From the NCBI GenBank assembly GCA_045863295.1, contig BTWA01000037.1:1-59449 (forward strand): DNA of 59,449 nt, given 5' to 3'. The notes beneath the pieces were generated by a model. That model was not told the origin of the DNA. It did no database searches and was given only the letters and a program-made list of their open reading frames with translations. The translations under genes were made by a program, and so were the position numbers. Every line of letters begins with the position of its first letter. Position 1 is the stretch's first letter. The stretch comes from Candidatus Hydrogenedentota bacterium. Its GTDB lineage: Bacteria; Hydrogenedentota; Hydrogenedentia; Hydrogenedentales; SLHB01. Below, piece by piece: positions 1 through 59,449 of this stretch.

Positions 1-102
1 GGGCCTCCTTTCGCGTTGAAGGCATTTTAGTTCAGTACGGAGAAGAAGACAAAGCGGAGCTTTTCGGGAGTGGGTTTCCAAGCGGACACTTGGGAACGAG
101 GG
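1..102 (-). repeat. Dispersed 102-bp element (copy 1) with REP-like hairpin, sigma70 promoter and Shine-Dalgarno, pointing out of the window
   Basis: Reverse complement aligns without gaps to 57919-58020 at 96/102 (hand alignment). On the minus strand: TTGTCT (52-47), N17, TAAAAT (29-24), AAAGGAGG (11-4). Confidence 0.9.
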
Positions 103-119
103 ATGTGTGAACACGAAGA

Positions 120-185
120 AAATTTTCGTCCGCAGATGAACGCCGATGTGCGCCGATGGGACGAATTGAGGGGAGGCGGTTTTTG
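120..185 (-). repeat. REP-like dispersed motif (CGCCTCCC...ATCGGCGTTCATCTGCGGACGAAAA)
   Basis: Reverse complement resembles 57652-57708 and 58057-58118. Confidence 0.75.
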
Positions 186-417
186 TGTTTGCTTGTGTAT
201 GCGGGTCGTGTGGTACTGGGTGAATCTGGACGCAACGAATCCGTGTGGAAGGCGCTTCGATGTTTTGTGTCACCTTTGCTCCCGGATATTGCACGACAGT
301 GTCCAATTAGCTTTGTGACGGCGAACTTGCTCGCCCTCCGCCGAAATCGGCGCCGTTACAGAGTGCGCATGAAATATCCTTCGTGTTTCAAGCTACACGT
401 GTTCTGTGAGAGCATTT

Positions 418-545
418 TTCACCACGCACGCTTTCAGCGTGGTGAAGAATGCGGTCTACAGGGCCTGCGGATAGGTAGGGTGGGCGAACCCAGGGCGTCG
501 ATTCGCTTTGCCCTTGGGCTCGTATGATTTAGCCCTTCAGGCCGT
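418..545. repeat. REP-like palindromes downstream of radA
   Basis: Perfect inverted repeat TTCACCACGC (418-427) / GCGTGGTGAA (437-446), and a CCCAGGGC...GCCCTTGGG hairpin at about 489-518. Confidence 0.55.
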
Positions 546-26843: not shown

Positions 26844-28007
26844 GTGGGACCGAATTTACAGGTCATCCTGCAGCAATTGCAGGCCGAGAAAGGCATCGAG
26901 CGGGAGACGCTGGTCGAGGCCATCCGCAGCGCATTGGAGACGGCCGCGCGTAAAAGCATCCGTGACAATGCGAACATCACCGTTGAGGTAGATATCGAAA
27001 AGGACAAGCTGGATTTCAAAGTATACGAAATCCGCGAAGTCGTGGAAGTGGCCTCCGACGCAACGCGCGAAATGACGTTGGAAGAGGCGCAAAAGCTAAA
27101 CCCGGAGGTGACTCTGGGCGATCGCCTGAAAGTCCGGACGGAGCCACGTGATTTTGGCCGCATCGCGGCCCAGACGGCCAAGCAGGTAATTCTGCAGAAG
27201 CTCAAAGACGCCGAGCGCGACAATATCTTCGACGAATTCAAAGGGAGAGAAGGCGAATTAATCACCGGCACGGTGAAGCGGGTTTCGCACGGTAACATCA
27301 TCGTGCAGGTAGGCCGGGCCGAGGCCATCGTGCCCCCGCGTGAACAGTCTCCCCGTGAAAACTTCAAACCCGGCGACCGTATCCGGGCATTTTTGCTGGA
27401 AGTGGAAAAGACCCCACGGGGACCCCAGATTATCCTTTCCCGCACGTCAACGGAACTCGTGCGTGCGCTATTCGATTTGGAAGTGCCCGAGATCTACGAC
27501 AACACGATTCAAATACGGGCCATTGCACGCGAGCCGGGCAGCCGCACAAAAATCGCCGTGCAGTCCAAGGACAGCAATGTCGATCCCGTAGGGGCCTGTG
27601 TAGGCATGAAGGGCGCGCGGGTCCGTGCGGTGGTGGAAGAATTGAACGGCGAAAAAATAGACATCGTCCGATACAGCACCAACCCGGTCGAATTCTGCGC
27701 AAACGCGCTGAATCCAGCGGATATTCTGGATATTTCGGTGGACGAACCCAACAAGGAAATCCTTGTAATCGTGCCACAGGATCAGTTGTCGCTGGCTATC
27801 GGCAAGCGCGGCCAGAATGCGCGTCTAGCGTCGCGGCTGATGGGTTGGAATATCGATATCAAGAGCGATACTGAGTTGTCCGGCGGCGCGGAAGATTCGG
27901 TGGCCAAGGCGTTTGACGCCATTGGTTCTGAAGCGAGTGAGACGCAGTCGCCGGAGCCGCCATCCTCTGATTCGGACGAATCGGAAGAGACTGCCGGCGA
28001 TGCGTAG
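26844..28007 (+). CDS. nusA: Transcription termination/antitermination factor NusA
   Basis: FGRIAAQTAKQVI, S1 and KH domains (AREPGSRTKIAV, LAIGKRGQNARLA); AAGGAG SD before GTG 26844. Confidence 0.98.
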   Translation: MGPNLQVILQQLQAEKGIERETLVEAIRSALETAARKSIRDNANITVEVDIEKDKLDFKVYEIREVVEVASDATREMTLEEAQKLNPEVTLGDRLKVRTEPRDFGRIAAQTAKQVILQKLKDAERDNIFDEFKGREGELITGTVKRVSHGNIIVQVGRAEAIVPPREQSPRENFKPGDRIRAFLLEVEKTPRGPQIILSRTSTELVRALFDLEVPEIYDNTIQIRAIAREPGSRTKIAVQSKDSNVDPVGACVGMKGARVRAVVEELNGEKIDIVRYSTNPVEFCANALNPADILDISVDEPNKEILVIVPQDQLSLAIGKRGQNARLASRLMGWNIDIKSDTELSGGAEDSVAKAFDAIGSEASETQSPEPPSSDSDESEETAGDA

Positions 28008-56406: not shown

Positions 56407-57273
56407 TTGAAGCGTGAACTGATATTCCTGCTCAAGACGTCCAGACCCGGTTTCTGGGTCACATCCATGTGGTTTTACCTCTTGCCCCTCGGAGGCCGAT
56501 GGGTGTTCAACGAGATCGAATTCTGGCTCGGCCTGATATACGTCGGCTTCCCGCTGGGCCTGCTCATCTACGGTTGGAACGATTACGTCGATGCGGAAAC
56601 CGACCGCCTGAACCCGAGAAAAGGCACCTTCCTGTTCGGAGCAAAACCGAGCGACGAAGAATTAAAGCGAATCCCTTGGTGGATGGCAGCGGTGCAGACC
56701 CCGTTCTTCCTGGCCTTCGCGGCGACAATGGGAATCAAAGCGCTCGCCATCATCGCAGGACTCATCGGCTTCACCTGGCTCTACAATGCACGGCCGTTCG
56801 GATTCAAGAACTATCCCATCCTGGATCTTACCAACCAGACAGGCTACTTGCTCGTGTTCGTCCTCAGCAGTTGGATCAATCGCGTGCCCCAGGCCCCATG
56901 GCCCGTCTTCCTGTTCGGAGCCCTCTTCGCCATGCACTCCCACCTGCTCGGCGCCACCATGGACATCGAACCCGATCGCGCCGCGGGACGACGCACCACC
57001 GCCAACGTCGCCGGGCGAGTGAGGGCCAAGGGACTCATCGCGCTGTTCATCACATGCGAAGCAATGCTCGTGCACTTCGCCCTGGGCAATACCGCGCTCT
57101 CCATCGCCCTGACGGCCGCGGCCGTTGGGTTCGTCCTCGACGCCGTCCTGCTCCAACGCGACAACCCGTATCCCCCCGCACAATCCACCGCCTTCCTGAT
57201 GGGCTGGAACGTCGCCGCCATACTCTCCGCCCCATGGATTTGGCAAAACGGAGTCTTCGCAGCCCCAACGTGA
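56407..57273 (+). CDS. UbiA-family prenyltransferase (CrtEb-like)
   Basis: SRP.FW, YGWNDYVDAETDRLNPRKG, YN..P..FK..P.LD, MDIEPDRAAG..T.A; multiple TM segments. Confidence 0.88.
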   Translation: MKRELIFLLKTSRPGFWVTSMWFYLLPLGGRWVFNEIEFWLGLIYVGFPLGLLIYGWNDYVDAETDRLNPRKGTFLFGAKPSDEELKRIPWWMAAVQTPFFLAFAATMGIKALAIIAGLIGFTWLYNARPFGFKNYPILDLTNQTGYLLVFVLSSWINRVPQAPWPVFLFGALFAMHSHLLGATMDIEPDRAAGRRTTANVAGRVRAKGLIALFITCEAMLVHFALGNTALSIALTAAAVGFVLDAVLLQRDNPYPPAQSTAFLMGWNVAAILSAPWIWQNGVFAAPT

Positions 57274-57344
57274 CGCTCCGCGAGATTACTCCGCATTCCT
57301 ATCACCATCCGCATCCATCGGCGCCAATCTCCAGACGAAAAACC

Positions 57345-57653
57345 CCACCCGCCGCACGAACGCCGTTCCCACTCTGGCCTGCGGGAGCTTGCTCCCGCCT
57401 TACCCAAGGGAGCTTGCTCCCGCACAACCACCCAAAACCATCCCACCAAAAACCAGCCACCTCAAACACACACCCCCATACTCATCGGGGCTCATCCGTC
57501 GACGAACTCCACCCGCCGCACGAACGATCCGCTCCCACTATGGAGTGCGGAAGCTTGCTCCCGCCTTACCCAAGGGAGCTTGCTCCCGCACAACCACCCA
57601 AAACCGTCCCACCAAGAACCAGCCACCTCAAACACACACCCCCATACTCATCG
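57345..57653 (+). repeat. Tandem direct repeat (2 copies of ~144 bp, period 164 bp) with REP-like palindromes
   Basis: 57345-57487 and 57509-57653 are nearly identical; each carries AGCTTGCTCCCGC twice within GGGAGC/GCTCCC hairpins. Confidence 0.93.
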
Positions 57654-57918
57654 CCTCCCCTCAAATCGTCCCATCTGCGCCAATCCGCGCTCATCTGCGG
57701 ACGAAAACGGTCCTTGTGTTCACATCTCTCCGTGCACTTTGTGTCTCTGTGGTGAAAACGTCTTTTCCCTCGTTCCCGAATGCACCGCTTTGTCATTGGA
57801 CTTGATCGTCTGTCTGCCAAATCCCGGATTCACGCGGAAGCCGTCAACACAAAAGAGCGCCCTTCACCGCCCTCATTCAATTTTTGTCCTTTTCGTCCAT
57901 TCTGTCCATTGCTTCCTA

Positions 57919-58020
57919 CCCTCGTTCCCAAGCTTCCGCTAGGAAACCCACTCCCGAAACGCTCCGCTTTGTCTTCCTCTCCGTACTGACCTAAAATGCC
58001 TTCAACGCGAAAGGAGGCCC
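57919..58020 (+). repeat. Dispersed 102-bp promoter/RBS element (copy 2)
   Basis: 96/102 identical to the reverse complement of 1-102; TTGTCT 57969-57974, TAAAAT 57992-57997, AAAGGAGG, then ATG at 58022. Confidence 0.9.
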
Positions 58021-58021
58021 C

Positions 58022-59284
58022 ATGCAGGCATCGCCCACCTACAACCTGCACACCCGCAAAAACCGCCTCCCTTCAAATCTTCCTATCTACGCCCATCGGC
58101 GTTCATCTGCGGATAAAACTCCTCGTCGTACCCACACCTCTGCCCAATCCCTGTTCAGCACCGGCTTCTGGCAAACTGCCGACATCGACGACATCCGCTT
58201 CACCGGCTCCAACCTTAAAACCACCACCACCTTCACCTACGACGACTGGGGCCGCATGACCCAAAAAGCCAACAGCGGCTTCACCGCCGACTACGCCTAC
58301 CGATACGAAGACTCGTTATTTTCACTACAAAGCGATTTCCCAGAGGAGCAAGATGTCTCCTGCGAGTATGGTGGCAACTTGAGTCGACGAATTAAAGTGG
58401 ATGACTCAAGCACGACCCAGTATCGATTCGCAATTGACAACTTGATCGTTAACGAGGAGGATGAATCAGGTGTATTGCAGCGGACATACGTGGGCAGAAC
58501 ATATGCTTCGTCGATCGGAACAATGCCCGCATCCGGCGAATGGGAATTTTACACATTAGATCACTTACTGACTGTAAGATCCGGATTCTCTGGTGACAAG
58601 ACATTGTCGAGTCGGTACGAATACACCCCGTTTGGTTCTCCGCTTTTGTCCACGTATAGTGCAACTGGTTGTCATGTTTTTTCATCCAATCGCTTGGATA
58701 AGGTCAACAAATTGATGTTCTCGCGAAGCAGGGTATATTCGCCAAGTGGAGTACGTTGGATGACCCGTGACATGGCTGGCATGATAGATACTCCCAATCT
58801 GTATACTTATGTACGTATGCAACCAGTGTCATTCATTGACACCGAAGGTTTCTTTGCATTCCCAGCTTTATCAATTGTGGGTGGACTCGTTGGTTGTGGC
58901 GTGGGGGCTTATATGGGATTTGTGTCTGATGCACTTGAACGCGGCCCCGGCTCTACAATGGCTACTCGATCAAAGTCAGCATTCTGTAACTGTATAGGCG
59001 GCGGAATCAGTGGAATGTCACTTGGAATGGGATTCATCGGCAACGCGCTATTTGGAGGTATGGGAGGAATGGCCGCATGTCTCTGCCAAGGGAGGTCAGC
59101 CCAATGTTGTGCGCTGACCAGTGCAGCTTCAGGAGGATTGGCAGGATTGGGTGGGCTCGGCTTTAGCACCAGAACTCTCGCACTAGGAGGTAGTGCCAAT
59201 ACTGCGGCATCAATGAGCAGCATAGGGGCTGGTGTGGGAGGTGGATTTGGTTCGGCTCTGGGCTGTTTCTGCCCTGACAGTTAA
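58022..59284 (+). CDS. Orphan Rhs module: partial, diverged Rhs core plus Gly/Cys-rich C-terminal toxin-like domain
   Basis: YDDWGR, DHL.TVR, YEYTPFG, RWMTRD.AG..DTPNLYTYV...PVSFIDTEG (variant of PxxxxDPxG); no full YD shell. Confidence 0.82.
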   Translation: MQASPTYNLHTRKNRLPSNLPIYAHRRSSADKTPRRTHTSAQSLFSTGFWQTADIDDIRFTGSNLKTTTTFTYDDWGRMTQKANSGFTADYAYRYEDSLFSLQSDFPEEQDVSCEYGGNLSRRIKVDDSSTTQYRFAIDNLIVNEEDESGVLQRTYVGRTYASSIGTMPASGEWEFYTLDHLLTVRSGFSGDKTLSSRYEYTPFGSPLLSTYSATGCHVFSSNRLDKVNKLMFSRSRVYSPSGVRWMTRDMAGMIDTPNLYTYVRMQPVSFIDTEGFFAFPALSIVGGLVGCGVGAYMGFVSDALERGPGSTMATRSKSAFCNCIGGGISGMSLGMGFIGNALFGGMGGMAACLCQGRSAQCCALTSAASGGLAGLGGLGFSTRTLALGGSANTAASMSSIGAGVGGGFGSALGCFCPDS

Positions 59285-59298
59285 TCGGATTTCAAGAG

Positions 59299-59449
59299 AT
59301 GGATCCAGCACTGAAAGAAATTCTCCAAGTTGTCAAGGCCGTTTTCCAGAAGAAAGGAGTCTGTTTCCTAGTCATTAGCACTAGCTTGTGTGCGGCATAT
59401 ATTGCGTGGAGGTTTTTGATCATTCCGACCGCCGGGAATCCCCTGCTGC
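59299..59449 (+). CDS. Putative membrane immunity protein (truncated by window end)
   Basis: ATG 14 nt after the Rhs stop; open to the end: MDPALKEILQVVKAVFQKKGVCFLVISTSLCAAYIAWRFLIIPTAGNPLL. Confidence 0.55.
   Translation, partial: MDPALKEILQVVKAVFQKKGVCFLVISTSLCAAYIAWRFLIIPTAGNPLL

Follow-up and report, generated by a model that had tools for sequence, protein, structure and literature searches.

The closest described systems

Orphan Rhs and CdiA-CT modules, in the part of the published description that bears on them (Poole 2011, PMC3150448; Koskiniemi 2014, PMC3967940), bring together the 3' end of a Rhs core, a variable tip and a small downstream ORF, with several alternative tips in one genome and a conserved core segment lying 5' of the variable part. 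Most such modules lack translation initiation signals, at least in the portion of the account that deals with them (Poole 2011, PMC3150448), and yet independent expression of Rhs tips is already known: promoters inside Salmonella Typhimurium rhs express both main and orphan Rhs-CT tips as type II toxin-antitoxin-like modules, and the relevant part of that study places the promoter within the coding region, 89 nt before the PxxxxDPxGL motif, with translation from a CTG codon (Starsta 2020, PMC7043789). An earlier note on the DNA discussed here had set out from the premise that orphan Rhs modules usually lack expression signals of their own, which is right as regards translation initiation in most of them and too broad in view of the Salmonella promoters. 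The other known kind of element that concerns us is the REP. Nunvar is said to have described, in 2010, REP elements with RAYT (TnpA-REP) transposases, as REPtrons. In the part of the literature closest to our case, the REP appears as a short hairpin repeat found mostly between long ORFs (Di Nocera 2013, PMC3733652).

Both kinds of element meet in a stretch of 59,449 nucleotides, hereafter the window (positions 1 to 59,449 of contig BTWA01000037.1, assembly GCA_045863295.1, from a Candidatus Hydrogenedentota bacterium), near whose right-hand end an orphan Rhs ORF opens behind a composite head of about 390 bp. REP/RAYT systems and orphan Rhs modules being familiar, what appears to be new is the architecture, in which one REP-welded head, private as far as we can tell among the genomes searched, is reused at seven loci or more in front of different tips. 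So far as the partial descriptions of other orphan modules permit a comparison, these cassettes differ in not being arrayed behind a full-length rhs gene, but dispersed over loci beside housekeeping-looking genes, and in having their own ATG, SD sequence and promoter-like hexamers, together with repeats in the head that are not derived from Rhs.

Anatomy of the head

The head consists of a 53-bp REP, a 49-bp promoter-like segment, an ATG with a 38-codon leader, and a 170-nt Rhs-core arm. In the right-hand copy, on the plus strand, the REP half (57919..57971) is a class-1 REP whose hairpin has decayed (-3.5 kcal/mol, z 0.05), and it passes directly into the promoter-like segment (57972..58020), which was not found in any other genome searched. 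The putative -35, TTGTCT (57969-57974), straddles the joint, its first three nucleotides (TTG) being the last three bases of the REP half, and it is followed after a 17-nt spacer by the putative -10, TAAAAT (57992-57997), and then by the SD sequence AAAGGAGG (58010-58017), with AAAGGAGG-N4-ATG spanning 58010-58024. TTGTCT-N17-TAAAAT, AAAGGAGG and C-ATG (58022) are thus placed as the earlier note had described them. The leader (58022..58135) is not Rhs-derived, and it holds a copy of a repeat, R, at about 58049-58135. Behind it lies the conserved, GC-rich Rhs-core arm (58136..58307), which is 92-96% identical to the arms of other heads; from 58136 onward the sequence matches the only full-length Rhs of the genome (on contig C38, 2143 aa) from residue 1796, the homology of the orphan starting at its residue 39. 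Identity between copies stops at about 58307, where GC content drops from 0.58 to 0.47, and the variable, low-GC remainder of the orphan ORF (58308..59284) carries the Rhs-associated core and then the toxin tip.

The left-hand copy lies at the other end of the window on the minus strand, with its promoter-like half (element positions 54-102) at 1..49 and its REP half (element positions 1-53) at 50..102. Its hexamers, at window 52..24, and its AAAGGAGG face out of the contig, and its class-1 hairpin is partly intact (-7.3 kcal/mol, z -2.4). Directly upstream of this REP, also on the minus strand, stands a copy of R, a CATCTGCG-type direct triplet, at 103..185; the stretch 102-185 matches 58140-58057 at 80%. 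Upstream of the right-hand head there is a further copy on the plus strand, R' (57640..57730), and the 13 copies of R in the genome are all at these loci. Also on the plus strand, 57341..57653 holds two tandem units, each of about 165 bp, of class-2 REPs, the family that flanks the second RAYT gene at C2:53408-54139, so the right-hand orphan sits behind a BIME-like repeat mosaic.

When copies from around the genome are compared, the head has a sharp 5' edge exactly at the start of the REP, with five upstream flanks that are unrelated to one another. At its other end the boundary is ragged: homology ends after R in C32, after ...RFTGS in C29a and C56, after ...GSNLKT in C8, and at about 58307 elsewhere. 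Within the head, the promoter-like segment has the highest mean pairwise identity, 0.90 as against 0.78-0.86 for the other parts. No Rfam family reached its gathering score anywhere in the window, and none matched at E<=1 in 1-700; at E<=1, 57250-58350 gave a chance lncRNA match only (23.5 bits, gathering score 50). A tRNA or tmRNA as integration site was ruled out, none lying within the window. Another dispersed repeat, about 147 bp long, lies at window 281-454; it has more than 30 copies, roughly 68-80% identical across contigs, and no Rfam match at E<=1.

A repeat trimmed by the assembler

How, then, did a head of this size first appear as an element of 102 bp? The two ends of the window do align as had been claimed, positions 1-102 (minus) with 57919-58020 (plus), in inverted orientation, without gaps and with 96 of 102 positions identical; in a genome search with the 102-bp repeat this pair scores E 1.8e-39. 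The copies differ at six element positions (15, 16, 23, 42, 59 and 72), of which four belong to the hairpin half and two to the spacer between -35 and -10, and the fact that all six spare the motifs carries little weight, since six substitutions would avoid the 20 motif positions among 102 with p of about 0.27 (arithmetic from the counts), which is not significant. In the other copies, homology runs on past position 102, through C-ATG, T-ATG or A-ATG, the 38-codon leader and the Rhs-core segment, to the equivalent of about 58307.

The explanation is to be found at the contig ends. Four of them (base 1 of the window and the ends of C12, C24 and C62) lie exactly 56 nt from the first private base; base 1 of the window is 56 nt past element position 47, the last base that separates the left-hand copy from its nearest paralogue. 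This common spacing is characteristic of breaks in a de Bruijn assembly at k=55, in which contigs end where unique 56-mers run out, and hence the length of 102 bp is a technical one, set by the assembler. The contig does break at a multi-copy repeat, just as the earlier note had supposed, and the coincidence of contig end and element end is an artefact; what was assembled as a 102-bp repeat is a stub of the longer shared head, and we infer that beyond base 1 the left-hand copy is very probably followed by the same leader and by one of the unplaced cassettes. We think the case is instructive in its own right, since it shows that the k-mer limit of an assembler can mimic a neatly bounded element.

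Repeats of this kind also raise the concern that the joint between element and Rhs ORF was made by the assembler and is not present in the cell, as a chimera or a collapsed repeat. It is true that four contigs break within the repeat, that summed contig depth in run X1 is 40-185 over 57328-58311 as against 10-13 in the unique flanks, and that no single public contig covers the whole repeat zone from 57000 to 59449. The same junctions were, however, assembled independently in C29, C61, C69, C32 and C8, and two contigs from other studies cross the joints, one of run X3 (record 19) bridging flank and element (57888-58020) with 0 differences and one of run X2 (record 14) leading from the promoter through the ATG to R (57966-58119), so that we regard a false joint as hardly credible.

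Copies across the genome

The genome search returned six full-length and 11 partial matches to the element, which bears out the claim that the repeat is dispersed and multi-copy. The set of copies and their contexts can be read directly from the contigs. Besides the right-hand copy in the window, which leads into an intact ORF of 420 aa, and the left-hand copy, which runs off the contig, an intact ORF of 439 aa with a Rhs_assc_core match of 49.9 bits follows the head on C61; these two intact Rhs-tip ORFs stand behind two of the six heads with a visible leader. Interruption, truncation or a frameshift has damaged the other four (C29a, C32, C8 and C69). C29a stays in frame for 63 codons before another repeat intervenes, and a bare REP and a start-less Rhs fragment of 597 aa come after it; on C32 only the leader and R remain, followed by small low-GC ORFs. 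The head on C8 (84% identity) has GGAAAT for its -10, AAAGGCGG as its SD and a 4-nt deletion that shifts the frame, with low-GC ORFs behind it, and on C69 the hairpin is deleted, the -35 reads TTATCT, the -10 is again GGAAAT and the ORF is frameshifted; both copies with a ruined -10 thus carry frameshifted ORFs. A further copy, C29b (C29:21873-21940), comprises element positions 16-83 only and is followed by unrelated DNA.

What is shared behind the copies matters most for their interpretation. Downstream DNA can be read for seven copies, of which six enter the same ATG leader, and the ATG stands at element position +104 wherever that region is visible (6/6). Because these six share leader, second repeat and Rhs arm, the copies are duplicates of one junction and not separate insertions before different genes. 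The suggestion that copies mark gene starts accordingly survives in that they sit at the starts of orphan Rhs cassettes, and fails in that the starts are one start, duplicated. The contig ends at C12, C24 and C62 are likewise Rhs-tip cassettes behind the conserved head, open for 320, 288 and 340 aa, so that at least six different Rhs toxin tips are found behind the conserved arm (the right-hand copy in the window, C61, C29, C12, C24 and C62). A conserved tail behind the C29, C12, C24 and C62 cassettes was considered as their 3' boundary and rejected, as it is a genome-wide repeat of about 200 bp found at many contig ends.

Not every relative of the head has all its parts. On C56, C59 and C4 the REP and the promoter-like part are missing and R is joined straight to the Rhs arm; an equivalent joint, from 57712 in R' to 58131 at the Rhs arm with 57713-58130 skipped, also occurs in contigs of runs X1 and X2. 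At C29:4723-2879 a bare class-1 REP abuts the Rhs-core fragment of 597 aa, at a different breakpoint and with no start codon, and loose ends of this junction are seen in contigs of runs X2 and X3. Inspection of the flanks of the compared copies revealed no terminal inverted repeats or target duplications, and among neighbouring ORFs read by eye no integrase-like ORF was noticed beside the heads, the only recombinase-type neighbour being a RAYT-like ORF on C32. The ORFs upstream of 57919 in the window have no Rhs match and look housekeeping-like by eye, and beside one cassette is an ORF that, from its appearance, we take to be RadA-like.

It had been proposed that the repeat is a self-contained, portable unit of about 100 bp, a promoter with ribosome-binding site that inserts in front of cassettes of different kinds. 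In support of such a unit, the copies have five different upstream flanks, the heads on C32 and C8 precede low-GC ORFs that are not Rhs, and C29b, with its -35 and a TAGAAT -10, precedes unrelated sequence and then a 162-aa ORF with hydrophobic stretches. We nevertheless think it unlikely. The limit of 102 bp is that of the assembly, six of seven copies are followed by a common ATG leader, R and Rhs arm, the right boundary is ragged, and the flanks lack the terminal inverted repeats and target duplications just mentioned. In addition, the two halves differ in their distribution: the 5' 53 bp are an independent REP, present without the promoter-like half at nine sites in this genome and at 127 or more loci in other phyla, while the 49 bp are almost always tied to one leader. 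The promoter-like 49 bp were not found in the 40 relatives searched, and a 21-mer from this half had 0 exact matches in genome_contigs and metagenome_contigs, as a 27-mer from the Rhs arm had 0 in metagenome_contigs, both scans covering exact matches only and possibly collections that omit records of this genome.

The REP half and its transposases

The claim that each copy carries a REP-like hairpin is borne out with a qualification: the 5' half is a genuine REP, and its hairpin has decayed in the right-hand copy and is partly kept in the left-hand one. What an undamaged version looks like can be seen on C61, where the stem is a perfect 11 bp with a 4-nt loop (-17.5 kcal/mol for the 102-nt element, z -3.85), and the stems of different copies show compensatory variants (AAGC/GCTT, AAAT/ATTT, AACT/AGTT). 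Inverted copies of the hairpin at C2:26745-26797(+) and 27387-27439(-) flank an ORF of 178 aa that matches Pfam Y1_Tnp and the REP-associated tyrosine transposase family NF047646 (105.3 bits, cut-off 80), and another such gene, 76% identical to it, lies on C9 between two further REP copies. The RAYT-like ORF on C32 stands just before the REP of the head, and its score of 58.6 bits is below the cut-off of 80; the idea that the head had truncated it was rejected, because the match covers profile positions 20-145 of 146. A second class of REP, made of paired GGAAGCTTGCTYCC-type palindromes, forms inverted copies around the second RAYT at C2:53408-54139 (NF047646, 88.2 bits, cut-off 80), and further copies of this class are seen on C3, C19 and C9.

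Searched as an oriented pattern in this 96%-complete draft, the class-1 REP has 19 oriented sites, eight of them at Rhs heads, a count affected by the tendency of draft assemblies to under-assemble repeats. The REP sites inspected lie in gaps between long ORFs, and stand-alone copies all end in ...GCTTTG before unrelated DNA, from which it follows that the -35 TTGTCT is half REP (its TTG) and half private sequence. In the 40 relatives, only element positions 1-65 gave matches. With the 4-nt loop left free, the exact hairpin is present at no fewer than 127 loci, in MAGs and genomes of many phyla; the record titles name Desulfobacterota-type, Planctomycetota, Verrucomicrobiota, Hydrogenedentota, Gammaproteobacteria and other lineages. 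Among the 127 loci listed, eight have a homologue of the C2 RAYT (34-64% identity) within 300 nt, and among the matches listed the DNA after the hairpin is not conserved. The uniformity of the hairpin across phyla suggests that the REP/RAYT pair has spread horizontally.

We therefore see in the REP half an ordinary member of the REP/RAYT kind, with an unusually wide phyletic spread of its exact hairpin. Inverted copies flank a RAYT above cut-off, stem changes are compensatory, and the element forms mosaics with a second class that bears its own RAYT. It differs from the described systems in its apparently low copy number (the 19 oriented sites), in the presence of one exact hairpin in many phyla, and in that one copy is welded to a promoter-like segment to which it supplies the TTG of the -35. 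In addition, no GTAG or CGTC tetranucleotide was seen beside the stem in the copies inspected, tags that concern the two super-families of Di Nocera 2013 and not REPs generally. Elsewhere, relative G011 has, at 1494-1879, four head-to-tail units of 96 bp (97% matches), each starting with the same REP hairpin and with compensatory changes in the stem. The repeat family of about 200 bp contains a variant REP (TCGTTCCCTGGCGCAAGC...), is tandem in places, and is found at both ends of C6, at ends of C17, C77, C10 and C69, and at C29:1900-2420; it probably accounts for many of the assembly breaks.

Is the head an expression signal?

This is the central question, and the answer is finely balanced: we put the chance that the head acts as a promoter at about one in two, and would say much the same of the fuller proposition that the head common to these dispersed, stand-alone tip and immunity cassettes is a working start for both transcription and translation. 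The organism itself seems to offer the right setting. It uses canonical sigma-70 promoters, 10 of 42 regions upstream of tRNA genes scoring at least 10/12 at a fixed distance as compared with nine of 2000 random 120-mers, and an SD core is found at -20..-4 in 35% of 290 ORFs with near-unambiguous starts, against a background of 10%. With sigma-70 promoters and SD sites in use, expression from the head is plausible. The hexamers TTGTCT-N17-TAAAAT reach 9/12 of the consensus score in both window copies, and the -35/-10 pair, the SD and the in-frame ATG all fall within 55 nt.

It is also possible, though we lean towards doubting it, that the very same anatomy is silent, a neutral piece of repeat junk copied along with orphan Rhs fragments, in which hexamers, SD and ATG would have arisen by chance, and in which the cassettes would be an unexpressed reservoir, used after recombination with full-length rhs, or simply in decay. 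A match of 9/12 is common by chance, 4.8% of random 120-mers scoring as well or better, and motif positions show no excess conservation, being no less variable than other positions (Fisher p 0.64-0.82). Codons 2-38 of the leader are unconstrained, with a pN/pS of about 1 across five copies. The decay of the hairpin in the window copies (with the left partly kept), the damage to four of six heads, the heads lacking the promoter-like part, the start-less 597-aa orphan and the lack of initiation signals in most orphan modules, as stated in part of the source (Poole 2011, PMC3150448), all sit comfortably with silence, and the match score, the variability at motif positions, the leader, the damaged heads, those lacking the promoter-like part and the 597-aa orphan are what we count against a working head. 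On the other hand, chance is unlikely to have placed a -35/-10 pair, the complete AAAGGAGG and an ATG in frame inside 55 nt, no other part of the head is as well conserved as the promoter-like segment, the ATG survives in 6/6 copies, and loss of the -10 goes together with decay of the ORF on C8 and C69; the last three of these are what we count in favour of a working head. Nor is a reservoir easily reconciled with the Rhs arm, which at only about 85% identity over 59 nt to full-length rhs would be a poor substrate for recombination of the Salmonella type.

Two further points speak against a working head. GGAGG and the ATG are separated by 4 nt, which is at the lower limit of spacings in this genome and occurs in one of 21 GGAGG-bearing starts. 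Six of seven heads are co-directional with the gene before them, so transcription reading through from it could take the place of a promoter in the head. Among the 24 sequencing runs listed for this DNA, none is recorded as an RNA run. We infer promoter activity, translation from 58022 and a part for the REP in the spread of the head.

As a working model we take the Salmonella case, in which, according to the part of the study concerned with it, tip and immunity gene are expressed apart from the delivery part by a promoter 5' of the variable tip (Starsta 2020, PMC7043789). Our candidate differs in lying outside Rhs sequence, at a REP junction, and in being followed by a canonical SD and an ATG; from there it is about 830 nt to the end of the core. 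Hybrid promoters, for their part, arise where an IS element or small repeat ends in a -35 box that faces outwards. Here too a mobile repeat supplies, with its last bases, the TTG of the -35, and adjoining DNA the remainder; the difference is that REP and promoter-like segment are always found already joined, with no sign that arrival of the REP created or changed expression.

How the cassettes may have spread, and what they may be for

The history of the head, and its use if it does work, might be pictured as follows. The Rhs arm is joined in frame at a fixed breakpoint (residue 1796 of the C38 Rhs), and this one ancestral junction would have been copied to new sites with the REP as its sharp 5' boundary, which fits the pattern of sharp 5' and ragged 3' edges. 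The REP may have served as a boundary for recombination or processing, the 3' part being exchanged or lost afterwards, and variable low-GC tips would have been swapped behind the Rhs arm. A working head would drive a truncated, non-deliverable Rhs tip together with its immunity protein, perhaps as a toxin-antitoxin-like pair, or perhaps so that immunity genes stay on, in the manner of the promoters within Salmonella rhs. A RAYT may possibly have moved the head.

A bolder form of the idea would make the head a platform for capture and expression, in which the Rhs arm captures foreign low-GC tip/immunity pairs, the promoter, SD and ATG of the REP junction express them, and REP and RAYT copy the platform. 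We consider this improbable; were it true, it would be a RAYT-linked functional analogue of the integron for toxin tips.

The consequences differ with the state of the head. An active head would mean that half a dozen or more Rhs tips and immunity genes are kept on without delivery machinery; it would extend the toxin-antitoxin-like Rhs tips of Salmonella to a distant phylum, Hydrogenedentota, with a REP contributing part of the promoter. A silent one would make this a clean example of REP-rich repeat mosaics that mark the breakpoints of orphan toxin cassettes.

The predicted orphan protein and its neighbour

The predicted protein opened by the ATG at 58022 has 420 aa and ends at 59284. It contains the Rhs-associated core (TIGR03696) at aa 201-276, with 47.6 bits against a cut-off of 32.5, and so has the core end and variable tip of an orphan module; neither the N-terminal part that serves delivery nor the greater part of the shell is present, and with no delivery domain a benefit from making the toxin part is doubtful. 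The tip, aa ~278-420 (window 58853-59281), is hydrophobic and rich in glycine, and contains several cysteines. No Pfam family matches it, and structural comparison gave only sub-threshold leads, to glycine-zipper membrane proteins; that the tip damages membranes is our guess. Behind it, on the plus strand, a small hydrophobic ORF of which the start is present (59299..59448) runs off the contig after 50 codons; these codons match no Pfam family, and by virtue of its position the ORF is a candidate immunity gene. Finally, in comparison with the Rhs proteins of C61 and C38, the orphan is without 21 YD-repeat codons at window 58230-58240, between two short direct repeats, a loss that is likely to be a deletion by slippage or recombination.
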